A DNA stretch of 64,000 nucleotides from Candidatus Uhrbacteria bacterium RIFOXYB12_FULL_58_10 (GTDB lineage Bacteria > Patescibacteriota > Patescibacteriia > UBA9934 > GWF2-40-263): positions 7,665 through 71,664 of the forward strand of contig CALRHL010000002.1 of NCBI GenBank assembly GCA_943359455.1, given 5' to 3'. Below are positions 3,963 through 60,007 of this stretch, piece by piece (the stretch's first letter is position 1; the number at the start of each line of letters is the position of its first letter). The translations under genes were made by a program, and so were the position numbers. The notes under the pieces were generated by a model. That model had not been told where the DNA came from, did not search any database, and was given only the letters and a program-made list of their open reading frames with translations.

Positions 3963-4394
3963 ATGCCGAATACCAATATCGAACAACTTATTTCATTGAT
4001 TATTACCACCACTCGTCTTATTCGGGAACACACTAAACATCGAGAAAAAATTGATCCCCTTTCCTATCTTCAATTGGGAACGCTTCGTTATGTGGCTGAA
4101 AAAAACAACCCACCCATGAAAGATGTTGCCGACCACCTCTGCATTACCCCTCCTTCCGCAACTTCTCTCATCAACAATTTGACAAAAATGAAGCAGCTTG
4201 AACGCATCTATGATAAAGATGACCGCAGACTTATCAGGCTTGCTATTACTGCCAAAGGCAGGAAAACGCTTGAGGATGGGTTTAAGAAAATAACAATACG
4301 AATGCAAAGAGTGTTAAGCAAGCTCAGCGAAAAAGAAAGAAGCGATTTTATTAAAATCCTGGAAAAACTCTCCCGCGCGTATAGTAATAAATAA
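3963..4394 (+). CDS. MarR family transcriptional regulator
   Basis: 143 aa with a winged-HTH MarR-like pattern (LSYLQLGTLRYVAEK...DDRRLIRLAITAKG), immediately upstream of the efflux operon. Confidence 0.75.
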   Translation: MPNTNIEQLISLIITTTRLIREHTKHREKIDPLSYLQLGTLRYVAEKNNPPMKDVADHLCITPPSATSLINNLTKMKQLERIYDKDDRRLIRLAITAKGRKTLEDGFKKITIRMQRVLSKLSEKERSDFIKILEKLSRAYSNK

Positions 4395-4399
4395 TTTTA

Positions 4400-6151
4400 A
4401 TGAAGATTATGATCCAAGTTCCAAAAAGACCAATTATTATTGTGTTACTCGTCATTGTTCTTGGAGGAGTTATTGGTAGTTACATCTATTTCGGCGGGGA
4501 CAGCGCTCTGGCATATGATTTTATTGTCGCTGAAAAACGTGACCTCGTTCAGGACGTAAGTGTCACGGGACGCGTTAAGCCGGCAGAGAGCGTTGATCTT
4601 GCATTTGAGAAAAGCGGAAAAGTTGCACTGGTCACTGCGAATATCAGTGATAAGGTGAGGCCTGGCCAAATACTTGTCACTCTTGAAAATTCAGAACTCT
4701 TGGCGGAACTCTCCCAGGCAGAAGCCGGAGTGGAGAGTGCTGAAGCCCAACTTAAGCAATATCAAGCATCTGTTGAAACGGAGCAGGCAAGCCTTGCCGA
4801 ACTGGAGCAAGGTACAAGGCCTGAAGAAATACAAATTGCAGAAACAAAAGTTTCAAATGCGCAAAATTCAGTTGAAGATGCGGAACTGAACCTCAATAAT
4901 GTACAAAGTAAAGCTAGTAACGATTTAGTAAATGTCTATGGAGACACCATGGATATATTAAATGATGCATATACCAAAGCAGATAATGCCTTGCATGCTC
5001 AAATTGACGAGATGTTTAATAATGATGATGGTAGTAGTCCTAAATTGACCTTCATAGTAACTAATTCCCAAGCTGAGATTGATGTAGAATTGCAGCGGTT
5101 CATTGCAGGAAATGAACTGGAGGATTTTAAGGTGGAACTAGACACTTTTTCAACTTCTGACTTCCCATCACTTGACCAAGCACTTGTAAATGCAGAAGGT
5201 CATTTAGTTATTATTAGGGATTTTCTTAATCGTCTTGGTGACGCAATAAATAGTTCTGCTGGGATATCTTCAAGCACGGTCAGTATATACAAAAGCAACT
5301 TGAATGTAGCGCGTGTCAATGTCAATACAGTTATCTCCAATAGTAACAACCAAGAACAAATTATTGCTACACAAAAGGAAATCAACCAGAGTAGTGTCAC
5401 TACTGCTGAAGCTCAAGTTAACGATGCTCAATATGCTCTCTTGTCCGCAGAAACAGAATTGACTCTCAAAAAAGCTGGTTCAACTCTCGAGCAAATTACT
5501 GCCCAAAAAGCACAGGTTGAACAAGCCGAAGCCAATGTCACCTCTCAGGAAGCTCAAATAAAGCAAACGAAAGCAAATGTCCAAAACATCGAAGCGCGAC
5601 TTTCAAAAACAATCGTTTACTCACCAATCAATGGAATCATTACAACACAAGACGCTAAAGTTGGTGAGATAGTTTCTGCCAACACTATTATTGTTTCTCT
5701 AATTTCAGAAGCAAAATTTGAAATCGAAGCCAATGTGCCGGAAGCGGATATCGCAAAAGTAAGCGTGGGTAACACCTCGTTGGTTACGCTTGACGCCTAC
5801 GGCAGAGATGTTGTTTTTGAAGCGAAAGTGGTTGCTATTGATCCAGCGGAAACCATTGTGGACGGCGTTGCAACCTACAAAGTGACATTTCAATTTACCA
5901 AAGAGGATGAGCGCGTTAAGTCAGGAATGACCGCGAATATCGATATCGCAAGCGACCGCAGGGTAAATGTTATTGCTGTGCCACAGCGATCCATCATCAG
6001 GAAAAACGGAGATAAATTCGTAAGAATATTAAACAGTGAAGATTTTGAAGAGGTAAAAGTAGAAACAGGGCTCCGCGGTTCTGATGGAAATATTGAGATT
6101 ATAAAAGGAGTCAATGATGGTGACAAAGTAATAACTTTCAGCGAAGAATAG
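4400..6151 (+). CDS. HlyD/MacA-family efflux periplasmic adaptor subunit
   Basis: N-terminal TM segment, long coiled-coil (repeated AELSQAEAGVESAEAQL-type heptads), C-terminal beta-barrel region. Confidence 0.8.
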   Translation: MKIMIQVPKRPIIIVLLVIVLGGVIGSYIYFGGDSALAYDFIVAEKRDLVQDVSVTGRVKPAESVDLAFEKSGKVALVTANISDKVRPGQILVTLENSELLAELSQAEAGVESAEAQLKQYQASVETEQASLAELEQGTRPEEIQIAETKVSNAQNSVEDAELNLNNVQSKASNDLVNVYGDTMDILNDAYTKADNALHAQIDEMFNNDDGSSPKLTFIVTNSQAEIDVELQRFIAGNELEDFKVELDTFSTSDFPSLDQALVNAEGHLVIIRDFLNRLGDAINSSAGISSSTVSIYKSNLNVARVNVNTVISNSNNQEQIIATQKEINQSSVTTAEAQVNDAQYALLSAETELTLKKAGSTLEQITAQKAQVEQAEANVTSQEAQIKQTKANVQNIEARLSKTIVYSPINGIITTQDAKVGEIVSANTIIVSLISEAKFEIEANVPEADIAKVSVGNTSLVTLDAYGRDVVFEAKVVAIDPAETIVDGVATYKVTFQFTKEDERVKSGMTANIDIASDRRVNVIAVPQRSIIRKNGDKFVRILNSEDFEEVKVETGLRGSDGNIEIIKGVNDGDKVITFSEE

Positions 6152-11057: not shown

Positions 11058-12131
11058 ATGAAATCATCGACAATATTGATTATCGTGGCGCTTGTGGCTG
11101 TTGCAACCCTGGGTGGCATCGTCGGATGGAATGTGTTGAACGGTCGAGAGGATGTGCCAAATGCTGCAATGCCAACGCAGACAGGATCGTCAGTCGCTTC
11201 GGAAGTTTCGGAACTATCAAAGCCCTCCGTTGCCACGGAGCCGGCCGTTACGGCGCTGCCCGATTTGTCCGACTATGTATGGAAGGCAATCGCCTCGGTG
11301 GTTGGCAAATCAGTTGGCAATGAGAAAGATGGAAATGTGCTCATGGCCGATGTTGTTCTGCTTCCGGACGGCACGTATCGTATGTATTATAACGCCGGCG
11401 GGAAAGGGACGGGCTCGATCAAATTCGCTAACTCCGTCAACGGAGACACGTGGACGGCGGGTGGGACCGCGCTTCAAGGCGGTTCCAGTCCGACGGACGA
11501 TGATTATATCATCGGTGGCTCGCGAGTACTGCAATTGAAGGACGGCTCCTACCGAATGTATTACCGTGCCACACCCGAACATGAAGGCAGTATTCCGTCT
11601 TATTCCGTCTATATGGCACAGTCCGACGACGGCAAAACATTCACCAAGTACGGAGTGGTCATTCCAAATACACGCGAGGATGCCGCAAGCACACTGGTGC
11701 TCGCTGGCCATGGGGCGTTTTACCAGATGGAGGACGAAACCTTCGCCGGATTTGTTTCTGGGAACGCTGTGGCATCGAACAGTGTTCCAAGTGATTTATT
11801 CTTTACCACCTCCGCAGACGGGGTTTCTTGGAAAACACCAACCGTCGCGTACGTTGGGTACCATGATCCGACAGTGGTAAAAACAAGCGATGGATATTTT
11901 CTATTGGCGATGTATTTGAAAAAATGGGTGGGGATCGGATTTTCCGCCGATGGAATCGATTGGTCGGTTGCGCTTGAACCGGTGGAATTGCTCGGGACAG
12001 ACGGAAAGACCGCGGATCTCCAGCCGATCGGGGACCTATCAACAGTTGTCGCGCCAGATGGTTCTCTGCTGCTCTTCAGCAATTACGGCAATCCAGGAGA
12101 CCGTTCGATCATGCGATACGTTCAACAATAG
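11058..12131 (+). CDS. Membrane-anchored BNR/Asp-box repeat beta-propeller protein (sialidase/glycoside hydrolase-like)
   Basis: N-terminal TM/signal anchor. Four Asp-box motifs: SVNGDTWT, SDDGKTFT, SADGVSWK, SADGIDWS. Confidence 0.6.
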   Translation: MKSSTILIIVALVAVATLGGIVGWNVLNGREDVPNAAMPTQTGSSVASEVSELSKPSVATEPAVTALPDLSDYVWKAIASVVGKSVGNEKDGNVLMADVVLLPDGTYRMYYNAGGKGTGSIKFANSVNGDTWTAGGTALQGGSSPTDDDYIIGGSRVLQLKDGSYRMYYRATPEHEGSIPSYSVYMAQSDDGKTFTKYGVVIPNTREDAASTLVLAGHGAFYQMEDETFAGFVSGNAVASNSVPSDLFFTTSADGVSWKTPTVAYVGYHDPTVVKTSDGYFLLAMYLKKWVGIGFSADGIDWSVALEPVELLGTDGKTADLQPIGDLSTVVAPDGSLLLFSNYGNPGDRSIMRYVQQ

Positions 12132-12132
12132 A

Positions 12133-12150
12133 GACTTTTGCAGAGGTCTC
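12133..12150. repeat. Solo terminal inverted repeat of the 161-bp MITE (GACTTTTGCAGAGGTCTC)
   Basis: Matches the right TIR at 43922-43946, 2 nt after the stop codon. Confidence 0.6.
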
Positions 12151-31609: not shown

Positions 31610-31694
31610 CCACCCCCAACCCCTCCTTGAAAAGGAGGGGAGATTATCTCAAAATCTGTTCCCCTCCTTTTCAAGGAGGGGCTAAGGGGTGGTT
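31608..31694. repeat. Nested palindromic element: two 21-nt hairpins inside an outer 9-bp stem
   Basis: AACCACCCC...[CCCCTCCTTGAAAAGGAGGGG]...[CCCCTCCTTTTCAAGGAGGGG]...GGGGTGGTT between the two GT2 genes. Confidence 0.7.
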
Positions 31695-41347: not shown

Positions 41348-42418
41348 ATGTCTACGATTGCGATTGATGAGAGTTCGACGAAAAAGGTAAATCGTTCTGG
41401 GGTTGAATGGTATGCGTACCATCTCATTGAGGCGATTAAGAAACAGTCGCTTGCAGATGGCGAGAAGGTTGTTTTTTATTCTTCGGAGAATTTGAAATGG
41501 TGGTTGCCGTTTGGATGGATGAAGGGGAGAGTGAGTTGGGAAATGTGGCGACGGAAGCCAGATGTTCTTTTCGTGCCTGCGCAAGGACTCCCATTGTGTG
41601 GGAAGCGAGTGGGGGTTGTCCATGACGTGGGATTTCGGCGTGTTGCGTCGGTGTATGAATCAGGTGATAGACGACGACAGGAAAGAGAGATGAAACGCAT
41701 GGTGAAACGTGCGGCGAAGATTTTTTGTGTTTCGGAGTTTACGAAGAGAGAGATGATTGAGCTGTTTAAGGTGAGTCAGGATCGGATCGTCGTTGCTCCG
41801 AATGCGGTGGATACCAATGTGTACCGTCCGATGGACGAATCTGCGATTGCTCCGGTGTTACAGAAATATCGTCTTGGACGGCATTTTTTCTTGTATGTTG
41901 GACGCATGGATGCAAAGAAAAATGTGAAGACCATTATCCGCGCGTTTGAGCTGTTCAAAGCAAGTCGCGGGCTTGGAGATCCGTTTGAACTCGTCCTTGT
42001 TGGCTCACCCGGATTTAAATTTTCTGAAATCAAAACGTATGTTGAACGGTCAAATGCGAAACAAGCGATCAAGTATCTTGGCTATCTTCCTGAAACAGAA
42101 AATGCTGCTCTTATGAATGCAGCGACCGCGTTTCTTTTTCCATCTTGGTACGAAGGGTTTGGTGTTCCTCCCCTTGAAGCCGCCGCATGCGGCGCGCCAC
42201 TCATTATTTCTGACATCGGTGCGCATCGAGAGGTTTTGCAAGACGCGGCGATTTTTGTGAAACCAACTGAACCAGAAGCTTGGGGAAAAATCCTTATGCA
42301 GTTCGCGGCAGATCCTTCAATCGGACAAGCCTTGCGACCGAAAGGATTTGAGCGTGCCGCAGCATATTCCTGGGATGCGACTGCAAAGATTGTTTTGGAA
42401 ACGTTGCGGCGGGTGTAG
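41348..42418 (+). CDS. Glycosyltransferase family 1/4 (GT-B)
   Basis: C-terminal EGFGVPPLEAAACGAPLI motif of GT4 enzymes. Confidence 0.8.
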   Translation: MSTIAIDESSTKKVNRSGVEWYAYHLIEAIKKQSLADGEKVVFYSSENLKWWLPFGWMKGRVSWEMWRRKPDVLFVPAQGLPLCGKRVGVVHDVGFRRVASVYESGDRRRQEREMKRMVKRAAKIFCVSEFTKREMIELFKVSQDRIVVAPNAVDTNVYRPMDESAIAPVLQKYRLGRHFFLYVGRMDAKKNVKTIIRAFELFKASRGLGDPFELVLVGSPGFKFSEIKTYVERSNAKQAIKYLGYLPETENAALMNAATAFLFPSWYEGFGVPPLEAAACGAPLIISDIGAHREVLQDAAIFVKPTEPEAWGKILMQFAADPSIGQALRPKGFERAAAYSWDATAKIVLETLRRV

Positions 42419-42424
42419 ACATGG

Positions 42425-43002
42425 CAGGGGTCCTGGGATGTACAGATCGGATACAGTGGTACAGATATACAGATGTACAGATGTGAAGAGTTGTTTATTG
42501 ACCTGTTCGGATCAGCACATCTGTATATCTGTACTTTTTCTGTACATCCCGTAACAACGAATCCGTATGGAGTTTGTTTATCAAGACCTGAGTTATAAAA
42601 TAAACGGAGTTCTATTTGAAGTTTATAATGAATTGGGTCCTGGATTAAAGGAAAACACTTATCAACGAGCGATTGCAGTTGCCTTATCACACACTGGCCT
42701 CAAGTTTAAGGAACAGGTATACTTTCCATTGAGGTTTAAAAATGAAGTTGTAGGATCACTCTATTTTGATTTCTTGATTGATGAAAAGATCGTTCTCGAA
42801 TTGAAAGTTGGTGAGTATTTTTCACGAAGGAATATAGAGCAAGTTCATCAGTATTTACTCTATTCAGGTTTACATCTCGGACTACTTGCAAACTTCACTC
42901 TTCACGGAGTGAAAATTAAACGCGTCGTCAATTTACAAAATAAATAATCAAATCTGTACATCTGTATATCTTGTACAGATCTGTACATCCCAGGACCCCT
43001 GC
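42425..43002. mobile_element. MITE-like 578-bp element with 24-bp perfect terminal inverted repeats carrying a GxxExxY gene
   Basis: Left TIR GCAGGGGTCCTGGGATGTACAGAT (42425-42448). Right TIR is its reverse complement (42979-43002). Internal GTACAGAT micro-repeats. Confidence 0.7.
42567..42947 (+). CDS. GxxExxY family protein (PD-(D/E)xK-like)
   Basis: GVLFEVYNELGPG matches the GxxExxY signature; 126 aa. Confidence 0.7.
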   Translation: MEFVYQDLSYKINGVLFEVYNELGPGLKENTYQRAIAVALSHTGLKFKEQVYFPLRFKNEVVGSLYFDFLIDEKIVLELKVGEYFSRRNIEQVHQYLLYSGLHLGLLANFTLHGVKIKRVVNLQNK

Positions 43003-43011
43003 TTTATCTGT

Positions 43012-43785
43012 ATGTCGAATCTCATTCAAGAACTCGGACAATTTGGTCTTTCAGAAAAAGAAGCGTCGGTGTATCTTGCCTCGCTTGAACTTGGACCTTC
43101 TCCTGTGCAGGATATTTGTCATAAAGGAAAGGTGAATCGGGCAACCACCTATGTGATGATCGAATCACTCATGAACCGTGGGCTCATGAGTTCGTTTGTG
43201 CGCGGCAAGAAACGATTTTATGTTTCGGAGTCGCCGGAACGGTTGCGCGCTGTGTTGCGAGTTCAGCGAAGAGATCTTGAAAGCAAAGAAGAGCAGTTTG
43301 AAAAAACATTCCCGATGCTCGCGGCACTGTATAACGCCGAAGGAGCAAAGCCGCAGATTCGGTATATGGAAGGGATGGAGGGAGTGAATACGGTGCGAGA
43401 ATTATTTCGAAAGCTCGACGGGGAGATTATTCAGTTTTCTCCGTTTCAACCAGCAACACCTGCTGACGAACTTGCGGAAGGATTAAACGAACATTTAAAA
43501 GAAATGGCAGCCCAAGCAATTCCTTATCGAATCCTGATTTCAATGGATTCACTGCATGTCGATCGCGTTCCAAAATTACCAAACATGGAGATGCGTATTT
43601 TGCCACCAAATCTTTTTCCTACCGAAGCGGAAATTACTGTCCGTGGGACGACAATCTGTATGTATTCTCTCAAGTCAGCCATTTTGGCGATTGTCATTAC
43701 AAGTAAGGAAATGGCTGATGGATTTCGTTCGCTTTTTGAACTCGCGTGGAAAGGGGCAGAAGAATATCCTGTTCGAAAGTCTTAG
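43012..43785 (+). CDS. TrmB family transcriptional regulator
   Basis: N-terminal FGLSEKEASVYLASLELGPSPVQDI wHTH typical of TrmB, plus a C-terminal sensor domain. Confidence 0.7.
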   Translation: MSNLIQELGQFGLSEKEASVYLASLELGPSPVQDICHKGKVNRATTYVMIESLMNRGLMSSFVRGKKRFYVSESPERLRAVLRVQRRDLESKEEQFEKTFPMLAALYNAEGAKPQIRYMEGMEGVNTVRELFRKLDGEIIQFSPFQPATPADELAEGLNEHLKEMAAQAIPYRILISMDSLHVDRVPKLPNMEMRILPPNLFPTEAEITVRGTTICMYSLKSAILAIVITSKEMADGFRSLFELAWKGAEEYPVRKS

Positions 43786-43946
43786 GAGACCTCTGCAAAA
43801 GTCCAGCACGGCTCCAAATCGGCCATCTTCGCACTGGACACATTCACGATTCCTCAATGATATCTGCATATCACCTCGAAATCGTTCATGTGCCCAGTAC
43901 GAATCTGACTCGATTTGGCCTCGTACTGGACTTTTGCAGAGGTCTC
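43786..43946. mobile_element. 161-bp MITE-like element with 25-bp TIRs (1 mismatch)
   Basis: GAGACCTCTGCAAAAGTCCAGCACG ... CGTACTGGACTTTTGCAGAGGTCTC. Nested inner IR CCAAATCGGCC/GGCCAAATCG-like. Solo TIR at 12133-12150. Confidence 0.65.
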
Positions 43947-44048
43947 TTAGAAATAAAAAACGGCTCATGCGTTTTCTTTTCGCTGAGAGCCGTCGAGGAG
44001 AGAGAGGTACGTGCAGAGGCGTACCTTTTTTGGGGAGGAGGATTCGAC

Positions 44049-44483
44049 CTAGAATTGTACGGGAATGAACGTACGCGGATCTCGATGTCGGAGTAGTTCG
44101 AGCAAACCGCTCACGGGTGCGCACCCGGGACCGAGGAAGCCGAGATGCATTCCGATTTCTTGAGACTGATTCTCGCCATGGACATACAGCGCGGTTCCTT
44201 CTTCGTCCCCTGGCTCGGCTACTTCGCGAGCAGGGATTCGAATTTTGGTCCAGTCGAGCGAGCTGTCGGCATCCTTCGATCCAGTCTCGGATCGATTGGT
44301 CGCTTCGCCGTCGTCCATCTCGGACGAGCACATCGACCAGATTGGACTGCCAGCCGTGTCGTCGGCGTCGGCGTCGGCGTCGTCAAGGTCGCGGGAACTG
44401 TCCGTGTCGACCGATCGGGGTGGGGATCCGTCAAGTTGACGGGAACGATTTTCCGGAACAAGTCCGGCCTGTAGAAGAAACAT
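44049..44483 (-). CDS. Hypothetical acidic protein (144 aa), high-GC island
   Basis: GGAG 6 nt upstream of ATG. D/S/E-rich disordered N-half. Confidence 0.45.
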   Translation of the reverse strand: MFLLQAGLVPENRSRQLDGSPPRSVDTDSSRDLDDADADADDTAGSPIWSMCSSEMDDGEATNRSETGSKDADSSLDWTKIRIPAREVAEPGDEEGTALYVHGENQSQEIGMHLGFLGPGCAPVSGLLELLRHRDPRTFIPVQF

Positions 44484-44865
44484 GTTGTACTCCGAGTAAT
44501 CGGAGAACGACCTGCTTCTGTTTGAGGCATCTGCATGCCGTCCTCCTTGTCACTCTCTACAATGTCCTCCCCCAAGATCGACGAAGTTCACCGTAGCGAG
44601 GACGCACTGTATCAAAAAGCCTAGGATTTGTCAAGGTCATTGGAGGTCTAATCCAGCTAGCTCTGACAGATAATTTCTCCAATTTCCCTTTTAATTCCAT
44701 TGATTTATCTAATTCTGTCCCAGATAATCTGGCTCTACTTGACAAATCTTTCCATTTCCATTACTCTTGTCAGTTCCCAAAACCCTCTGGGTATATGACT
44801 GGAGGGTCTTGGGGGCACAAATGAACTATTCAGACAGGGGAGAGACCCAAAGAGAGCTCTGCAAA

Positions 44866-44895
44866 GCAAAAATCCGCCTTATGGCGGATTTTTGT
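44866..44895. terminator. Rho-independent bidirectional terminator (AAAAATCCGCC-TTAT-GGCGGATTTTT)
   Basis: Perfect 9-bp GC-rich stem with flanking A/T tracts; similar to 58297-58322. Confidence 0.7.
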
Positions 44896-45312
44896 TGAGG
44901 GGAGAGACTCAGTGGGTGTAACCACGAGGTTTATCCCACATGTTCGGAGGCAAGGGATGCAGTGACTTCTCTTGCGAGGAGTGTGCACCATGGTTGTCGG
45001 GCGTATGGGGGGAGTCAGACCTAGGTCCGAGTCCACACATTTGGCAACCCCCGATTCAGTGTTTTAAAGCACCGAACCGGTTTGCTCTCTCCTCCGAGCA
45101 TGTGAGAACCTCCTCACTACGAATTTTTTCTGAGATTTTTTCTGCGAATAACGAATCGGCTACACATCTTACAAATAGCTACGTATTACTACGAATGGTT
45201 CGTTGAAATTTGTTGCTATTTGTATGATATGTGGGAGATTTGTAGTTCGCAGGAAAAATTCGTAGTGAGGGGGTGGGGAAGAGCTCGTGTTACGAGATTC
45301 CCCAGAGTCGGT

Positions 45313-45621
45313 TTACGCCGCGTACTGTCGCGATGCACGAGTCGTGTCTTTCCACGACTTGGTTTGCTGGGGCGACGGCAAGAACCAGTTCGAAACGGTC
45401 ATGCTTTCGGTAACCGTGTTGCCACCTGCGATGACCCCGCTGTCGTAGTGCTCGACGTACGACCGACGCTGCGGCTCAGGCACGAGCTTCACTTCGATTT
45501 CACCGGGACGTGAGTCGCTCTGACAGATCATCGTTCTCGAACGTGCGACGATCGAGCCGTCACCGATCTTCAGAGGACGGCACGAGCCGTCGAAACCGCG
45601 CCAAGAGCTGATTCGGGACAT
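45313..45621 (-). CDS. Hypothetical protein (102 aa), high-GC island
   Basis: AGGAG 4 nt upstream of ATG at 45621. The longer listed ORF 45313..45966 probably extends spuriously upstream. Confidence 0.45.
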   Translation of the reverse strand: MSRISSWRGFDGSCRPLKIGDGSIVARSRTMICQSDSRPGEIEVKLVPEPQRRSYVEHYDSGVIAGGNTVTESMTVSNWFLPSPQQTKSWKDTTRASRQYAA

Positions 45622-46049
45622 GAATCTCCTTTCGCCTATCGAGAGGCGAGTTGTTGGGTGAGGGTGGAAGAAATGATCGTGATGGGAACGTAGAACAACG
45701 CTCCGATCATGAGAGAGAACACGACCGCGATTCCCGCGAACGTGAGGATGGGCTATTTCAGCGATGCCTTTGCGTCCCGGAAATATGGGGAGCGGTGTGG
45801 TGTGGCAGTCGCCTTGCTCTGCACAGCGTGATTGCTTTGCAGTACTGACTAATGGAGTTCGCTTTCTGTCGCGACCTCCTCGAAGGGTTGGATAATTGAT
45901 CCAGCGCTTTGAGGAAGTCTGGGTTACTAGCGGAGTTCCGCGTTCACCCAGCAGTCCATTTGTCATTGACCTCCATGACGAGGAGCATTCTCTTGAACCA
46001 CGTGCGAGACGTGATCACGGGGCTTATGCACAAACCCGTTCGAGAAGAA

Positions 46050-47207
46050 TTACTTCTTCTTGCCTTTGGCCTTGTCCGCTTGACGATCACGCTTCGATTT
46101 GGAACCGCCGGATTTCTCCGACTGCACCATTCCGGGCGTGACTTCACGCGCCTTCTTGAAGGCTGCGTCCAGTCCACCGAAACCTTCGAGCTTTCGCCCG
46201 TCGTCTCGCGGCTTGGCCGGAGCCTGCACTTGCGGTGCGGCCTTCGGCGGATCCTGACGCTTGGGAGCGTTCGAGTCCGTCCTCCCGGCGATCTTGGCTT
46301 CGCGGAAGAGTCCGCCGATCTTTCCGCCACCTTCGATGATCTTGTTGATGTTTGCTTCGGACTCAGCTTTCGCCTTGGCCGCCATCGCCTTGATCGCCTC
46401 GAGCAGGGGGAACCACCTGTAGCTTGTGTCTCGACTCGCGAGTTGGCAACCCGCGACGGAGATGAGTTCCTCACGGGTCGGATCGCGGTCACCGATCCCG
46501 AGCTTCTGCTGGACCGGGAAGATCGGTGGAACGAACGCATCCACCAACCGGATCTGGTGTGTCTGGCATCCTTTCGCCGTACACGTCACCATCTCCTCCG
46601 GCGGTTGCTCCTTCTTTGGGGGAGCCGAAGGAGGCTTTCCACCACCACCGTTCTGGGTTCGCGACGCAAGCGCCGCGATCGCCAGACTCCGGACGGCATC
46701 TTGGATGCTCGGCCGGCTCGGGGTCGGAGCGGGTTGCTCGATCGAGGCCACGGTGACCACTTCTGCGACCACCACCGATTCCTCCGGCATTTCGATCGGG
46801 GCCGAAGCTTCCGCCTCGTCCTCGATGAAACGTGCCGGGGCCTGTTCGGATTCGAGGAGCTGGACGCCAGTTTCCTCGGCTGCGGCCTCGATCACGATCT
46901 CGGCCACGGGGGCCTCGATCCTGGCCGCCGCCGCCATTTGCTCGAGCCGATCGGATGCCGCCTTGCGGTCGGCGCGATACACTTCGAGCATGGATTGAAT
47001 TTCCTCGATCGGAATCTCGAGAAGCTTCGTCCTTCCGCGGATCTCCTCGTACTTGACGAGCAGACCGGCTTTCTTGAACTCACTCCGAAGCGCGGCTCGA
47101 TCCTGCCGTACGTTGCCGTGTGCACTGAGTGCAACGACTCCGCTACGGATTTCTTCGCGACGCTCTTCGACACTGCTCGCAGAGCGAGCTTCAGATTCGT
47201 GCAACAT
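46050..47207 (-). CDS. Hypothetical protein (385 aa) with lysine-rich C-terminal tail, high-GC island
   Basis: AGGAG 6 nt upstream of ATG at 47207. Plus-strand ORFs over the same DNA are R/L-rich antisense artefacts. Ends ...KSKRDRQADKAKGKKK. Confidence 0.6.
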   Translation of the reverse strand: MLHESEARSASSVEERREEIRSGVVALSAHGNVRQDRAALRSEFKKAGLLVKYEEIRGRTKLLEIPIEEIQSMLEVYRADRKAASDRLEQMAAAARIEAPVAEIVIEAAAEETGVQLLESEQAPARFIEDEAEASAPIEMPEESVVVAEVVTVASIEQPAPTPSRPSIQDAVRSLAIAALASRTQNGGGGKPPSAPPKKEQPPEEMVTCTAKGCQTHQIRLVDAFVPPIFPVQQKLGIGDRDPTREELISVAGCQLASRDTSYRWFPLLEAIKAMAAKAKAESEANINKIIEGGGKIGGLFREAKIAGRTDSNAPKRQDPPKAAPQVQAPAKPRDDGRKLEGFGGLDAAFKKAREVTPGMVQSEKSGGSKSKRDRQADKAKGKKK

Positions 47208-47685
47208 GGTGGACTCCTACGGGGGGCACTCGTTTGGACAGTTGTTCCCGAGCTTGGGATTCAGCTCGCACTCGCGAGCTTACAGAACTGTGGCGCTTCG
47301 TCCTTGACAGCGCTTCTTTGAAACACGAGCGTTCAGCTCCTGCATCAGAGAAGCGCGGGGACTCCTTCACCCTCTTCCGCCGTCAATACTCCCACACGAC
47401 TCTTGCGAGCCAGGAGGATTTTCGACGGAGGAAGAGGATGCTGATCAGAGTTGGGATCAGCTCCAAGGGTTTATCGTTCTTGCGAACATTCGGTACCCCT
47501 TACCGTTTGATGGCTTCAGTTTCGCGTGCCATCGGTGAGCTTGGAGACAGTCTCTTACGAGACGGAATCATGCTCGACGCAGCGTGTCCGGGTTACAACC
47601 CTACGATCACGACTTTGCCAGCGGAAGGAGCTCGTCTCCCTCTACGCTGGCCTGACTCGGTTCCGAGAGAACGGTTACGAAGGTT

Positions 47686-48111
47686 CTACCCCTCCGTCCC
47701 CGTCGACTCGACCACCTGCTCGGCGGGGGCGCTCGTCGCCACATTCGCCGCCTTGGCCGCGTCCTGTTCCGCCTTCCACTTCTGGTCGGCGGCGCGGGCT
47801 TCCTCGAGGCGTCCGCGGAACTTTGCGAGGTCTTCCTGCGCGGTACGGAGCTGTTCGCAGACCTGGTACTTCGTGACACGAATGCCACGGTTTTGGCAGT
47901 CCGAGAAGTTCTCGCGCGCGATCCGTTCCTCGTTGCCACAACGGCTTTCGAGGGCCGAGTCGAGGATGCTCGTGAAGAGGATCACAGACTCGGGGGAGCC
48001 CACGATTTCCTTCCGCGAAAGGTTCACCAGGACGCCACCGAAGTGACGAATGGCGGCCTCGACAACATTGCGCTCGTTCTTGCCAATCCAGACAATTTGG
48101 GTCGTTTCCAT
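47686..48111 (-). CDS. Hypothetical protein (141 aa), high-GC island
   Basis: AGGAG 8 nt upstream of ATG at 48111 (METTQIVWIGKNERN...). Confidence 0.5.
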   Translation of the reverse strand: METTQIVWIGKNERNVVEAAIRHFGGVLVNLSRKEIVGSPESVILFTSILDSALESRCGNEERIARENFSDCQNRGIRVTKYQVCEQLRTAQEDLAKFRGRLEEARAADQKWKAEQDAAKAANVATSAPAEQVVESTGTEG

Positions 48112-48738
48112 GGTGAAAGCTCCTGTAGTGGCGTAATCGACGGAGTGTCGAATAGTGGCCAGAGCGGGATGGATGCCTTTTACAGACATACATTCCGCTC
48201 TGGCCTACTTATCCTCACCAACCTAGAGGCGTGGTGAGACTCGGTTTCTAGACGTGCAAGCACGGTTCGAATCGAGTCTCTTGGATCCAGTTGGTATGCA
48301 CTGAGTTAGCCGAGGCCAAGGCAGTGCATTTAGGACCCACATCTTCCGCGGCCCGAGGGCGTAGGAAGAATGTTTATCTCTCTCCTCCAGGTTGCTAGGG
48401 ATAAGAAGTAGTTGGGGGGGGTGGAACAAAAAACCGGTTTCTGTACGTATCTAAAGAGAGACGTGTACAAAAACCGGTCTTTCTGCCGTTGGGCGCGGGC
48501 AGGCGCGTTCTCTCTCCCCATCAATTGTGAGAGCCACATGATCGCTTCGTACGATCAGGTAACCCACTGCAATCTATCGGAGAGTAATAGTATCATAATT
48601 TGGTGGAATTGTCAAGAGTGGAGTGTGGATTCTGTGCTAGGTTGACAGAAATATAAGTGTCAGGATGAGCTGGAATAGATAAGGTTTGAAGGGTCGGATG
48701 GTCGGAGGTTTAATGAGACGTGTTATAATCCTTCCGAT

Positions 48739-49602
48739 ATGTTCTCCTCCATCATTGGTCATCAAAACGTCTGTTCTGTCCTGTCCCGCCAGATTGAAAC
48801 TGGACAGATGGCGCATGCCTACCTGTTTGTTGGTCCAGAAGGCGTGGGGAAGAGTGCGGTAACGAGCGAGTTCATAGGGACTTTAGTCCCGTCGGGTACG
48901 GACGCCACTAAAGTGGCTAGGAATTTTGACGAAAAAACAGAAAAATTGAAAAGTTCGATTTCTGTCGAGCAGATTCGAGAACTGCGTGAAAGGCTTTCCC
49001 TCACTTCGTTTGATGGATCAAAAAAAATGGTTTTTATTGAAGAGGCGGATTATTTATCCGATAGTGCCGCGAATGCACTTCTGAAGACTCTCGAAGAACC
49101 ACGAGGAGATACTTGCATTATTTTGCGCGCAGAAACCGTTGAGTCTGTTGCTGAAACAATCGCGTCTCGATGTCAGATTCTGCGATTTCATCTTGTGCCA
49201 GAAAAAATAATCCGTGATGCACTTCGCACACGAGGCCTTGAACAAGAAGAAGCGATGAAAATAGCAACGATGTCTCGTGGTCGTCCTGGTGTTGCCCTTC
49301 GACTGATTCGAGATGGTGCCTATCGAGCACAACGAGAAACAGCGCACGCGACCTTTCAAACAATCATGTCTTCTTCACTTCCAAAACGTTTAGGACTTGT
49401 TGCAAGCCTTCTTCCAAAAACCGAAACAGACAAATCTTCCGCTCTCGAAAAAATCCTCGATACCTGGGAAGAGGTCGCTCGTGATAGAATGCTGGACGGA
49501 GATTCTCGGTTCACACCAATCCTTGACAGGATACGCGAATCAAGAGAAGCAATGGAGTTTAATATAAATCCTCAGCTCGCCCTCGAGCACGTCGTTATTT
49601 AA
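48739..49602 (+). CDS. holB: DNA polymerase III subunit delta' (HolB)
   Basis: AHAYLFVGPEGVGKS Walker-A-like, ...LLKTLEEP... clamp-loader motifs. Confidence 0.85.
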   Translation: MFSSIIGHQNVCSVLSRQIETGQMAHAYLFVGPEGVGKSAVTSEFIGTLVPSGTDATKVARNFDEKTEKLKSSISVEQIRELRERLSLTSFDGSKKMVFIEEADYLSDSAANALLKTLEEPRGDTCIILRAETVESVAETIASRCQILRFHLVPEKIIRDALRTRGLEQEEAMKIATMSRGRPGVALRLIRDGAYRAQRETAHATFQTIMSSSLPKRLGLVASLLPKTETDKSSALEKILDTWEEVARDRMLDGDSRFTPILDRIRESREAMEFNINPQLALEHVVI

Positions 49603-55731: not shown

Positions 55732-55854
55732 CACAAACACTGTAAAATTGTGAGGTGTTGGTGCGCAGCGAGCAGCGCAGTAAGGCGTACAAAGATGTAC
55801 GTCGTCGAGCAGCACAGCTGCAAACCAACAGATCGCAATTTTACAGTGTTTGTG
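55732..55854. repeat. Perfect 19-bp inverted repeat (CACAAACACTGTAAAATTG / CAATTTTACAGTGTTTGTG) enclosing ~85 nt, abutting the tRNA-Thr 5' end
   Basis: 19/19 complementarity. Inner GCGCAGCGAGCAGCGCAG-type repeats. Confidence 0.75.
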
Positions 55855-57771: not shown

Positions 57772-57779
57772 TCCCACTT

Positions 57780-58005
57780 CGCTCTTCGAGCTACGTTAGG
57801 GATGTATCCCACAGAACAGGCGAAGTGGGATGCCCCTAACGAAGCTTGAGCAAAGCGAAGTGGGGCTCTGTTTCTATCCTTCGCTCTTCGAGCTACGTTA
57901 GGGATGTATCCCACAGAACAGGCGAAGTGGGATGCCCCTAACGAAGCTTGAGCAAAGCGAAGTGGGGCTCTGTTCCTATCCTTCGCTCCTCAATCACCAG
58001 AAAAA
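57780..58005. repeat. 102-bp tandem repeat, about 2.2 copies, between tRNA-Tyr and tRNA-Thr
   Basis: Unit CGCTCTTCGAGCTACGTTAGGGATGTATCCCACAGAACAGGCGAAGTGGGATGCCCCTAACGAAGCTTGAGCAAAGCGAAGTGGGGCTCTGTTTCTATCCTT. Copies at 57780-57881 and 57882-57983 differ by 1 nt. Internal hairpins ATCCCAC/GTGGGAT and CGTTAGGG/CCCTAACG. Confidence 0.85.
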
Positions 58006-58008
58006 CCC

Positions 58009-58083
58009 GCCGCTTTAGCTCAGTGGTAGAGCAACACTTTTGTAAAGTGAAGGTCCCCGGTTCGAGCCCGGGAAGCGGCTCCA
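58009..58083 (+). tRNA. tRNA-Thr (anticodon UGU), CCA encoded
   Basis: Acceptor GCCGCTT/AAGCGGC, D-arm GCTC-AGTGGTA-GAGC, anticodon loop TTTGTAA, T-arm CCCGG-TTCGAGC-CCGGG. One A.A mismatch at 27:43. Confidence 0.8.
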
Positions 58084-58322: not shown

Positions 58323-58369
58323 TAAAAAAAGACCACGTGGCAACGCGACGTGGCAAGGAAGGGCGTGCG

Positions 58370-58921
58370 CTACCTCGAGTGGTACGCGATGGCGGTCTTG
58401 AGGTCTTCGAGATTGTGGGAGGGACCGCGGTTCGGTTTCGTCAGGCTATCGATCGACTTCCAGACGATCTTTCCGTTGACGATGAGGAGCAGACCGTTGC
58501 GGATGCGGTTTTGTTCTTCCTTCGGGATGTGAACATCGAGAAGGATTGCGAACTCGTGGCTCGGGATGAGTACCTGTTTTGCTCCACTGATACATTTGGC
58601 GTAGTGGATGTAGCTTCGGTACGCGTTGCCGTAGGTCGTTGGTTCGCCTGCGAGTATGTGAACCGTAACTGTTTCATTCGCGAATCTTTCCATGAGCGCC
58701 TGCATGGCGACACGGAAGTCGACGAGATCCTTGAACGTGGCGATGACCACGATTCCGTCACCCGAAGCGAGCTCGCTCGCATGTTTTCCATTCTCGACCG
58801 TTCCGGCGTGCCGGAATGTTGCCTCGGAAGGGAAGTTGATGAGCTCGTTGCTCGGGCCAGAAGTATCGATGCGGAGAGAATCCTCACCTTGATCGGCGAG
58901 GGGAGGGAGAGCGGTAGACAC
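58370..58921 (-). CDS. Hypothetical protein (183 aa), weak thioredoxin/peroxiredoxin-fold resemblance, locally high GC
   Basis: Coherent minus-strand frame. The overlapping 250-aa plus-strand ORF is R/D/V-rich antisense. Pattern GKHASELASGDGIVVIATFKD...FAILLDVH...LLLIVNGKIVW loosely resembles redoxin topology but has no CxxC. Confidence 0.45.
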   Translation of the reverse strand: MSTALPPLADQGEDSLRIDTSGPSNELINFPSEATFRHAGTVENGKHASELASGDGIVVIATFKDLVDFRVAMQALMERFANETVTVHILAGEPTTYGNAYRSYIHYAKCISGAKQVLIPSHEFAILLDVHIPKEEQNRIRNGLLLIVNGKIVWKSIDSLTKPNRGPSHNLEDLKTAIAYHSR

Positions 58922-59073
58922 GTGCGTGACCTCATGACCGTTGTTTCAGAACGTGCTTCGAGCGGATCCCGAAAACACGAGGCGGAGTGTACCCTGCTTC
59001 TTGCGATGGGTCAAGATCGGTTTAAGCTGGCATGTTGGAACTACATAGGTTATGTGGTATACTTTGGTTTGAT

Positions 59074-59748
59074 ATGGCACATCTCTTAAAAAAGAAAACA
59101 GATGCGATCTTATTGAGAAAGAAAGGAGCGTCAGTTCCTGCGATCGCTCAATCGTTAGGAATTGCGAAAAGTACGACGTGGTTATGGGTAAAACATGTAG
59201 TTCTTTCAGAGAGACAAGTGGCGGATCTTGTAAAAAATTCTGTTGATGGTCGCAATACTGGAAAGCAGGTGCTTGCGGCAGTTCGTTTAGCACACCAAGT
59301 TGTAAGACAAAAAAATGCAAAAACGATAGTTTCAGATCTATTAACAGTGCAACCAGATTCGTTTTGGAAAGTTTTCGCAGCAATCTTATTCTGGTGTGAA
59401 GGAGGTAAGCGACATTTAACATCAGTAAGATTTACGAATTCAGATCCGGAACTCCTCCGTGTATTTTTATATGCTTTTCGTAAAGGTTTCGACCTTGATG
59501 AAAGGAAATTTCGTGCGGTTGTACACATTCATGGATACCATGATGATTTAAAACAAAAGAAATTTTGGTCAGAAGTAACAGGGGTTTCAATGAAACAGTT
59601 TTCAAAATCATACGTAAAACCGAATACAGGGAAACGGGTACGTCAAAACTATCAAGGGTGTCTATCGCTTCGATATAATGATGCAGCCCTTGCTCGGATG
59701 CTAGACGCCTTGTATCATGCATTCGCAGCACAGATAGGGGCTTGGTGA
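59074..59748 (+). CDS. HTH-domain protein with possible LAGLIDADG-like segment
   Basis: N-terminal LRKKGASVPAIAQSLGIAKSTTWLWVK HTH. AAILFWCEGGKRH...VRFTNSDPELLRVFLYAF loosely resembles a LAGLIDADG motif and following helix. The 3' end overlaps the tRNA-Trp 5' end by 13 nt. The listed ORF starts at 59032. Confidence 0.45.
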   Translation: MAHLLKKKTDAILLRKKGASVPAIAQSLGIAKSTTWLWVKHVVLSERQVADLVKNSVDGRNTGKQVLAAVRLAHQVVRQKNAKTIVSDLLTVQPDSFWKVFAAILFWCEGGKRHLTSVRFTNSDPELLRVFLYAFRKGFDLDERKFRAVVHIHGYHDDLKQKKFWSEVTGVSMKQFSKSYVKPNTGKRVRQNYQGCLSLRYNDAALARMLDALYHAFAAQIGAW

Positions 59749-59809
59749 AATGGTATCACGACTCTCTCCAAAAGAGTTGTCGCAGGTTCGATCCCTGCAG
59801 CCCCTGCCA
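59736..59809 (+). tRNA. tRNA-Trp (anticodon CCA), CCA encoded
   Basis: Acceptor AGGGGCT/AGCCCCT, D-arm GTGA-AATGGTA-TCAC, anticodon stem ACTCT/AGAGT with loop CTCCAAA, T-arm GCAGG-TTCGATC-CCTGC, discriminator G. Confidence 0.85.
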
Positions 59810-59909
59810 CGTCGCTCGCGAGCGACGTGGCCTGCCACTCGGATTGAGAAGCGGGTCACGTCACTCACGGACGATGTCGATACAAATACGTCGCTCGCGA
59901 GCGACGTGG
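59807..59909. repeat. Two copies of a perfect GC-rich palindrome (CCACGTCGCTCGCGAGCGACGTGG); the first includes the tRNA-Trp CCA end
   Basis: 24-nt perfect palindrome at 59807-59830. 20-22-nt copy at 59888-59909. Flanking GGCCTGCC / GGCAGGCC are mutual reverse complements. Confidence 0.8.
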
Positions 59910-60007
59910 CAGGCCACTCGCTTTGGGTGACAGGCCAGTAGGTCGTGTCAACATGACTCAAAAGAACGCTGAAAGGCGCTCTTTTGTTGTGGTAGAATGA
60001 TTTTGGT

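Follow-up and report, generated by a model that had tools for sequence, protein, structure and literature searches.

The 64,000-nt stretch of contig CALRHL010000002.1 analysed here (the window) carries on its minus strand, at the junction between holB and the gene for a TrmB-like regulator, an island of four orphan genes interspersed with structured RNAs. Protein-coding sequence accounts for half of the segment 43950-48585 (2,328 of 4,636 nt, 50%), and the structured non-coding RNA half had gone unseen in an earlier reading of the letters and their open reading frames (ORFs), hereafter the original prediction. We find that purifying selection maintains the folds of the structured RNAs, and we are highly confident that the one at the head of the island, RNA-1, is a genuine conserved structured RNA. 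Our overall picture is that of a clade-specific RNA-protein cassette at the holB/TrmB junction, possibly of old mobile-element origin, and we regard the case for this picture as about evenly balanced. By sequence, structure and gene content the cassette appears to belong to no described family, a judgement that draws on absent matches and on constraint, with its function inferred. The original prediction had left the choice between a horizontally acquired cassette, a phage or plasmid remnant and a novel system, and it is the last of these that the evidence favours.

Structured RNAs and predicted transcription units

Four related genomes or contigs were available for comparison (L002, L004, L085 and L086), among which L085 is a 14.3-kb contig of a distantly related, Peribacteria-type organism. 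The predicted main transcript of the cassette is preceded by a sigma-70-like promoter on the minus strand (48587-48615; TTGACA, 17-nt spacer, TACTAT, with TG), divergent from holB. Its -35 box is identical in the window, L004 and L085, with -10 boxes of TATTAT (L004) and TATCCT (L085) in the relatives. Directly downstream lies RNA-1 (48157-48580, minus strand), about 430 nt of structured RNA or structured 5' leader. The segment 48150-48600 had been taken for a miniature inverted-repeat transposable element (MITE) and a promoter region, and is instead a conserved structured RNA gene. RNA-1 begins with a 5' domain formed by a covarying hairpin with an ACGAA loop (about 48514-48584) and a long hairpin (about 48427-48485), continues with a four-way, cloverleaf-like core of 207 nt (48204-48410), in which a long closing helix encloses three hairpins, and ends with a terminal hairpin (48157-48205).

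Folding energies and covariation both support this structure. The minus strand of 48150-48585 folds at -194 kcal/mol against a mean of -129 for shuffled sequences (z = -10.9), as compared to z = -5.6 for the plus strand, and RNA-1 of L085, when folded independently, adopted the same architecture. Across three sequences, compensatory changes were seen in 30 of the 141 predicted pairs of the whole RNA. In the core, 95.8% of the cells were paired and double changes occurred in 17 of 71 pairs; none of 500 shuffles reached the observed value, and structures slid by 1-3 columns were 35-46% paired. RNA-1 contains at least 10 G-U pairs, for which reason we assign it to the minus strand. For the core, the window and L085 have 77% sequence identity, compared to 60-67% for the flanking housekeeping genes.

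Searches of the window and L085 against Rfam 15 gave no match at the gathering score, only chance hairpin matches at E <= 5, and ARAGORN identified neither a tRNA nor a transfer-messenger RNA (tmRNA) in the two copies. An identity as RNase P RNA, tmRNA, signal recognition particle RNA or 6S RNA was rejected on the grounds that no Rfam match was obtained at E <= 5 and that the architecture differs. Likewise, a tRNA fragment had been suspected at about 48260-48290 from the string GGTTCGAATC; ARAGORN and Rfam were negative, and the string is located in the internal loop of an RNA-1 hairpin, on the opposite strand. A complementarity between 48499-48516 in RNA-1 and 45711-45728 upstream of ORF B is not conserved in L085 and was put down to chance. 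TnpB with omega-RNA, IS110 bridge RNA, retrons and group II introns were dropped as candidates, as no matching protein or RNA model was found.

A second element, RNA-2 (44925-45114, minus strand), is located in the 3' untranslated region (UTR) of the main transcript and was recognized with a covariance model of the RNA-1 core. The model, with which 82 kb were scanned with filters off and about 255 kb with default filters, scored 42.8 bits at RNA-2 in the window and 38.2 bits at the syntenic position in L085 (6422-6600), where the reverse strand gave only 7 bits. RNA-2 has in common with the RNA-1 core a GGAGG:CCUCC closing helix, the junction sequence GGAGGAGAGAG and three hairpins, and it is 62% identical between the window and L085, with 9 compensatory pairs. 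We conclude that RNA-2 is probably a diverged paralogue of the RNA-1 core. As a separate observation, two G+C-rich hairpins elsewhere in the window (31612-31688 and 59803-59913) have arms of the GGAGG/CCTCC type and score 25-30 bits with the same model via the closing helix alone; they are probably terminators.

The spacers between the genes are also structured. The 478-nt spacer between ORFs D and C (47208-47685, minus strand) has a fold z of -6.75, and 23 compensatory pairs were counted in this spacer between L085 and L086. Its 155-nt block immediately 5' of ORF C (47208-47362) contains hairpins and the motif GUCCCCGCGC and is 95.5% identical to L002, although the synonymous sites of ORF C are only about 55% identical. 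The GUCCCCGCGC motif is invariant in four genomes (the window, L002, L085 and L086), as is GTCCCCGCGC. The non-coding spacer between ORFs C and B (45622-46049, minus strand) has a fold z of -3.4 to -3.8, and the segment 45960-46052 is 92% identical to L002.

The main transcript ends at a predicted bidirectional intrinsic terminator on both strands (44868-44893; AAAAAUCCGCC-AUAA-GGCGGAUUUUU), which is conserved with compensatory changes in L085 (6616-6660). Beyond it, a sigma-70-like promoter of ORF A (44606-44634, minus strand; TTGACA, 17 nt, TACAGT) has its counterpart at about 6826-6860 in L085 (TTGACA, 17 nt, TATTCT), and a terminator-like hairpin with a U-run follows 3' of ORF A (43951-43994, minus strand); the two terminators were read from the sequence. 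These conserved promoter- and terminator-like sites on the minus strand are consistent with two transcription units. The first would comprise the main promoter, RNA-1, ORF D, the structured spacer, ORF C, ORF B, RNA-2 and the intrinsic terminator, and the second ORF A between a conserved promoter of its own and a terminator.

Two further hairpins look like later insertions. H1 (43783-43949), which abuts the stop codon of the TrmB-like gene, is a near-perfect hairpin of 167 nt with z = -14 and is more stable on the minus than on the plus strand (-117 vs. -87 kcal/mol). H2 (45108-45274), also 167 nt and near-perfect, is AT-rich with z about -10, and is probably an insertion. Both are absent from L085, occur once in the 64 kb and are unrelated in sequence to one another. 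The MITE that had been placed at 43786 does have the inverted-repeat hairpin form and the small non-coding size of such an element, but it is single-copy in the window and no dispersed family was found within the 64 kb; H2 has the same form and size and is likewise single-copy there. The terminal 18-mer of H1, GAGACCTCTGCAAAAGTC, recurs once, at 12133-12150, directly after the stop codon of the ORF at 11058-12131, and this copy might represent either an isolated end or a target-like site.

Orphan proteins, Shine-Dalgarno boxes and base composition

All four minus-strand ORFs were confirmed at their predicted positions: ORF D (47686-48111, 141 amino acids), ORF C (46050-47207, 385 amino acids), ORF B (45313-45621, 102 amino acids) and the acidic ORF A (44049-44483, 144 amino acids). 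None of them has a recognizable function, as had been predicted. Searches with Pfam, PHROGs, PADLOC and NCBIfam gave no match for any cassette ORF of the window, L085 or L086, nor for the long plus-strand ORFs, and in particular no clear housekeeping homologues were identified. The defence-system models in PADLOC gave only a chance hit (E = 0.017). Likewise, no integrase or other mobility gene was found by the four collections among the cassette ORFs of the window, L085 and L086, in agreement with the original prediction; the only trace was a match in L086 to a recombination directionality factor, at an E-value of 0.02 that is far below significance. The clusters that we looked up for the cassette proteins of L085, L086 and L002 were all singletons among 15 billion proteins (one L085 ORF was outside the collection).

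ORF C is organized into an N-terminal domain, an Ala/Glu/Pro-rich linker, a Cys/His domain (C209, C214, H217 and C254) and a Lys/Arg-rich tail. An exhaustive HMMER search with an ORF C profile in 1.84 billion representative proteins retrieved only three relatives, namely P0002, which is 71% identical and encoded on the 1.35-kb contig L002, P0016, which is encoded on L085, and P0017. The four members of the family have in common an N-terminal pattern (...LR.EF..AGL...), a low-complexity Ala/Glu/Pro linker and basic C-termini, and in all four the Cys/His domain retains C209, H217 and C254 together with a second Cys (C-x2-C or C-x4-C). This suggests that ORF C is a zinc-binding, nucleic-acid-binding protein. 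A profile search of the Protein Data Bank (PDB) with the ORF C family gave no match. Structures were predicted with AlphaFold2 (AF2) for ORFs C and D, but the models were too poor for a fold search, with predicted local distance difference test (pLDDT) scores of 43 for ORF C (from a two-sequence alignment) and 58 for ORF D (from a single sequence).

The sample from which L002 derives also contains a copy of the host holB region that is about 90% identical to that of the window. Compared with L002, ORF C has a ratio of nonsynonymous to synonymous substitution rates (dN/dS) of 0.24, with 57, 48 and 137 substitutions at the first, second and third codon positions; it is under purifying selection, yet is diverging faster than the host genes. 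The 470-aa plus-strand frame that overlaps ORF C gave a dN/dS of 1.29, compared to 0.24 in the frame of ORF C, and thus, where they could be tested, the plus-strand ORFs are artefacts, as had been supposed. The 3' part of ORF C (46120-46240) is 96% identical to L002 with synonymous sites included, compared to 73-81% for the remainder of the gene, which suggests an embedded RNA element or a recent gene conversion.

ORFs A and B are weakly conserved in L085 (30-34% identity), with the same start positions. The syntenic homologue of ORF B has 125 amino acids and is 30-33% identical (E = 3e-6), with the common motif MSR..W..C.P..IGD.S...WK..TRA.RQY, and that of ORF A has 134 amino acids and a similar N-terminus (MFLL.A.L.P) and C-terminus (LL[ED]LLRHRDP.T[FY].PV). 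A 217-aa version of ORF B, with an N-terminal extension proposed by Prodigal, was rejected, since the G+C content at third codon positions (GC3) of the extension is 0.45, unlike cassette genes (0.72 in ORF B itself), and since the start of the homologue in L085 corresponds to 45621. The original prediction had also pointed to a short transmembrane peptide ORF at 45636-45710; such a frame exists, encoding 24 amino acids, but it is unsupported, with neither a Shine-Dalgarno (SD) sequence nor a counterpart in L085.

ORF D occupies a variable slot. Its only database match was itself, and its base composition is coding-like (G+C of 0.64, 0.44 and 0.80 at the three codon positions). Its place is taken in L085 by two unrelated ORFs of 133 and 220 amino acids, and the gene directly upstream of the ORF C homologue in L085 and L086 encodes a coiled-coil protein with a C-x4/5-C...C-x2-H finger, whereas the window has the unrelated ORF D there. 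A longer ORF D of 167 amino acids, starting at 48189, was rejected as its start falls within the terminal hairpin of RNA-1, where a loop insertion in L004 carries stop codons.

A further peculiarity of the cassette is the use of SD sequences. The box AGGAG precedes the ATG of ORF B by 4 nt, that of ORF C by 6 nt and that of ORF D by 8 nt; ORF A has just the shorter cGGAG, at a distance of 6 nt, so that the AGGAG ascribed to all four genes stands for three of them. AGGAG or related boxes of the GGAG type precede the cassette ORFs in the window, L002, L085 and L086. In the host genes, by contrast, strong SD sequences are scarce, as originally noted: AGGAG or GGAGG was found upstream of 1 of 40 long host ORFs and any SD 4-mer upstream of 5 of 40, and the box of the single positive ORF is located within a hairpin (31616-31686). 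The difference between 3 of 4 cassette ORFs and 1 of 40 host ORFs has a p-value of about 0.001 in Fisher's exact test. The scarcity in the host fits the listing of Ca. Peribacter riflensis as an SD-scarce organism that lacks CCUCC (PMC10783764). A TATAAT-like box is found 6-12 nt upstream of the ATG in many host genes, for example holB (48719-48741), which suggests that leaderless mRNAs are widespread in the host. A separate hairpin motif of about 42 nt (CCCCTC.AAGCG..TTC.CC...GAGCCCT.CGA.GGG) occurs three times in the L085 cassette (4389-4430, 5119-5160 and 5939-5983) and not in the window, and the copy at 4389-4430 is predicted to sequester the GAGGAGG box of the ORF B homologue.

The rise in G+C content that had been noticed by eye is real. 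In 1-kb steps from 44 to 49 kb the values are 0.526, 0.529, 0.625, 0.594 and 0.500, compared to 0.40-0.53 in the rest of the window, and the G+C content of 45313-48205 is 0.593, compared to 0.464 for the window minus the island. The composition is thus far from uniform (0.59 vs. 0.46), and it is uneven within the island as well at 300-nt resolution, with about 0.60 at 44100-44550, 0.44-0.50 at 44550-45300 and 0.54-0.68 at 45300-48150. GC3 differs as well, at 0.70-0.80 in the cassette genes and about 0.40 in the host. The top five outliers in raw tetranucleotide usage among the 2-kb windows of the 64 kb are all located within the island (z up to 9.1), but the signature is host-like after normalization for base composition (z = -0.4 to -1.5). 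The anomaly is therefore mainly one of G+C content. A compositional deviation of the type seen in integrative islands is nevertheless present in G+C, GC3 and raw tetranucleotides.

Descent of the cassette and rival explanations

The glycyl-tRNA synthetase (GlyRS) of the window is closest to those of metagenome-assembled Peregrinibacteria and Peribacteria (best identity 67%), and we therefore consider the host to be a bacterium of this group within the Candidate Phyla Radiation (CPR). In L085, the proteins encoded next to the cassette are 70% (TrmB-like), 68% (GT4 glycosyltransferase) and 59% (HolB) identical to those of the window at the amino acid level, and the cassette sits between HolB and TrmB-like genes in the same order and orientation. 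It starts with the promoter and RNA-1, followed by the 133-aa and 220-aa ORFs, the homologues of ORF C (28% identity) and ORF B, about 1.6 kb of non-coding sequence, RNA-2, a terminator, a promoter, the ORF A homologue and the TrmB-like gene. The whole L085 contig has a G+C content of 0.66, and the GC3 of its cassette is 0.90-0.97, compared to 0.81-0.90 in its host genes, so that in this relative the cassette exceeds its surroundings in G+C only slightly. Between the window and the approximately 90%-identical relative, the synonymous divergence (dS) is 0.37-0.84 in host genes and 0.71 in ORF C, and the ORF C contig of that relative has a G+C content of 0.62, compared to 0.46 for its host contigs. 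The occurrence of the same junction in L085, together with a dS of ORF C within the host range, makes a recent transfer unlikely. The cassette is, very probably, old and has been kept at one site rather than imported recently. An ancient acquisition, or exchange among Peribacteria, may have taken place and would help to explain the anomalies in G+C content and SD use.

The known distribution of the cassette is tiny. The cassette, or pieces of it, is present in all related genomes recovered (L002, L004, L085 and L086) and is syntenic in L085, so that patchiness, which the original prediction had proposed to look for, was not seen in this very small sample. The nearest GTDB Peregrinibacteria (GlyRS identity up to 67%) do not have the local gene order in common and are therefore unusable for a comparison of presence and absence. 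No relatives of ORF C were found in the GTDB representative genomes, the JGI metagenomes or IMG/VR, no match to ORF A in IMG/VR, and none to an invariant 20-mer of RNA-1 in JGI or IMG/VR.

We hypothesize that the long transcript carries, in its related 5'- and 3'-terminal RNA domains, cis-acting platforms for binding, stability or regulation. These platforms would serve one or several nucleic-acid-binding proteins encoded in the cassette, with ORF C as the prime candidate, and the result would be a self-regulating RNA-protein module. The AGGAG boxes could enable initiation at the internal cistrons of a heavily folded mRNA in a host where initiation otherwise takes place without SD sequences. 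The raised G+C content could stem from selection for stable RNA folding and for proteins rich in Ala, Glu, Arg, Pro and Gly, and possibly also from an old origin in a G+C-rich relative or mobile element. This specific mechanism is offered tentatively, as a doubtful proposal.

Several observations weigh against the picture of a clade-specific RNA-protein cassette. Relatives were recovered from only four genomes or contigs, two of which are short fragments, so that conservation in the clade rests on L085, the one complete syntenic locus, and these fragments. The cassette proteins are only 28-30% identical in L085, compared to 59-70% for the host proteins, and such fast divergence is also seen in selfish elements. 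A GC3 of 0.70-0.80 in a genome whose host genes have about 0.40 is hard to retain through vertical descent unless selection is strong or gene conversion biased, and fits an import better. The homology margin of RNA-2 is moderate, in that unrelated long hairpins reach 29.7 bits with filters off. Finally, the binding of the RNAs by the proteins is purely inferred, as the structure predictions gave no usable model.

We also considered the possibility that the locus is an old, semi-autonomous mobile or virus-like element specific to the Peribacteria, in which RNA-1 would be the target or end structure and RNA-2 a second, diverged terminal copy, like direct repeats of the attachment site (att) or long terminal repeat (LTR) type bounding D-C-B, and the ORFs would be genes of the element. 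The cassette differs from the host in G+C content, GC3, SD use, strand and evolutionary rate, related RNA domains of about 200 nt bracket D-C-B in direct orientation, the genes beside RNA-1 differ between genomes (ORF D in the window, the 133-aa and 220-aa ORFs in L085), and the assemblies of the close relative break at the cassette edges. However, no integrase, replicase, capsid, terminase or transposase was identified in any copy, the viral and plasmid collections gave no match and there are no short exact flanking repeats. Moreover, the junction is the same although the flanking proteins are only 59-70% identical, the dS of ORF C is within the host range, and the fold of RNA-2 has been kept under selection, unlike what would be expected of a displaced att fragment; on balance we find this explanation rather unlikely. 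A quite improbable alternative, in our view, is that RNA-1 and RNA-2 are two copies of a riboswitch-like leader that respond to the same signal, RNA-1 by controlling D-C-B and RNA-2 by controlling terminator read-through into ORF A. A conserved multi-helix junction with invariant junction nucleotides does occur twice, each time on the strand of the ORFs that follow, the covarying domain is located upstream of ORFs as is expected of a leader, a perfect intrinsic terminator is situated within about 30 nt of RNA-2 in both genomes, and the GGAGG:CCUCC closing helix resembles SD-sequestering platforms. Yet ORF A begins 385 nt past the terminator with its own conserved promoter in between, the hairpin that follows RNA-1 lacks a U-tract and shows no conservation in L085, the orphan genes under the supposed control bear no sign of a metabolic or transport role, and RNA-1 is far larger than its core.

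The leading idea of the original prediction, a recent horizontal acquisition from an unrelated high-G+C organism, phage or plasmid, would account for the jump in G+C and GC3 and for SD-led genes in an SD-poor host. It is largely refuted and can be given very little credence, since the only homologues found are from the same locus of related Peribacteria-type contigs, the normalized tetranucleotides are host-like, the dS is in the host range and no other source was identified in 5.8 billion proteins, the GTDB representatives, the JGI metagenomes, IMG/VR, phages and plasmids. Synteny with L085 and the dS of ORF C likewise contradict a horizontally acquired cassette of recent date. The option of a phage or plasmid remnant fares no better: DNA similarity to 50,697 phage and 72,556 plasmid records was not detected, no family match was obtained and IMG/VR contained no relatives, and the island has no integrase, no short direct repeats at its borders and no tRNA or tmRNA (ARAGORN and Rfam). 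An assembly chimera or other non-biological artefact might be suspected, given that the assemblies of relatives are interrupted at hairpins close to the cassette. We consider this negligible, as the join is identical in several assemblies, including the Logan assembly L001, and as the same architecture with both flanks was recovered from an unrelated sample (L085).

More speculatively, and with a very low probability in our estimation, the main transcript could act at the RNA level as a selfish or packaged unit, one that has been vertically trapped in the Peribacteria and would represent a novel type of bacterial RNA-protein element. The cloverleaf-like ends may in that case be likened to the structures that terminate RNA replicons and retroelements, whether tRNA-like or of the LTR type, and ORF C, with its Cys/His domain and basic tail, could be a "nucleocapsid-like" protein that binds the transcript ends. 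The AGGAG boxes and the GGAGG:CCUCC helices would then constitute a private code for initiation and regulation, in a cell where the host ribosomes largely ignore SD sequences.

Neighbouring features and comparison with known systems

Some features outside the cassette were also recorded. A gene of the GxxExxY / PD-(D/E)XK_3 type (42567-42947) is flanked by GTACAGAT-rich inverted repeats (42417-42550 and 42938-43009) and is absent from L085, where the TrmB-like gene directly follows the GT4 gene; the gene and its repeats look like a small inserted module. Between tRNA-Thr (58009-58083) and tRNA-Trp (59736-59809), where tuf is expected, we found two overlapping ORFs (58337-59089 and 59032-59748), which may reflect a frameshift or a gene other than tuf. 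A 102-nt tandem duplication with 99% identity (57777-57980) directly follows tRNA-Tyr, and a near-perfect hairpin of 123 nt (55732-55854), unrelated in sequence to H1 and H2, abuts the 5' end of a tRNA-Thr gene (55854).

The genomes of CPR bacteria are tiny and gene-dense, and a 4.6-kb locus that is half RNA and has been kept across relatives whose flanking proteins are only 59-70% identical is therefore likely to be important to them. The locus yields one or more large RNA folds that are new and covary unusually cleanly, a probable paralogue, and four orphan protein families, one of which has a conserved Cys/His motif. It may serve as a test case for translation in lineages largely without SD initiation, and for the long persistence of a block far from the base composition of its own genome. 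Should it truly be a particle of RNA and protein, or a mobile element at the level of RNA, it would represent a new class of bacterial system; otherwise it is a well-defined new non-coding RNA motif for catalogues of the Rfam type.

The cassette recalls several known systems, none of which it matches in full. As in tRNA- or tmRNA-linked genomic islands, the 3' end of a structured RNA gene coincides exactly with the start of a compositionally distinct block, the far side of which carries a related second RNA, and the genes beside the RNA are variable. Unlike such islands, the cassette contains no integrase, recombination directionality factor or short exact att repeats, and the RNA is not a tRNA or tmRNA. 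Furthermore, the far RNA copy is full-length with a fold under selection, and distant relatives carry the block syntenically instead of showing a patchy distribution.

OLE RNA, with its OapA, OapB and OapC proteins, and the ROOL, GOLLD and raiA RNAs are large bacterial non-coding RNAs with partner proteins or an association with phages. Similar to these, RNA-1 is a long, multi-domain, covarying and lineage-restricted RNA that adjoins genes of unknown function. It differs from them in having no Rfam match, in appearing to be the 5' part of an mRNA with a paralogue in the 3' UTR, and in being accompanied by unrelated orphan proteins.

A few SD-dependent genes are also known from SD-poor bacteria, such as rpsU with its autoregulation in the Flavobacteriia. 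Here too a few genes retain strong SD-like boxes in a lineage that is nearly SD-free, but the SD-led genes are orphans that are grouped in one cassette. Operons with multi-copy aptamer leaders provide yet another comparison. The cassette differs from these in that its genes have no metabolic theme, no known class was matched, and one copy is situated at the 3' end of the operon, with a promoter before the next gene. Like them, it displays a conserved junction fold twice on the same strand as the downstream ORFs, with one copy followed by an intrinsic terminator and with a closing helix that resembles a duplex between SD and anti-SD sequences.

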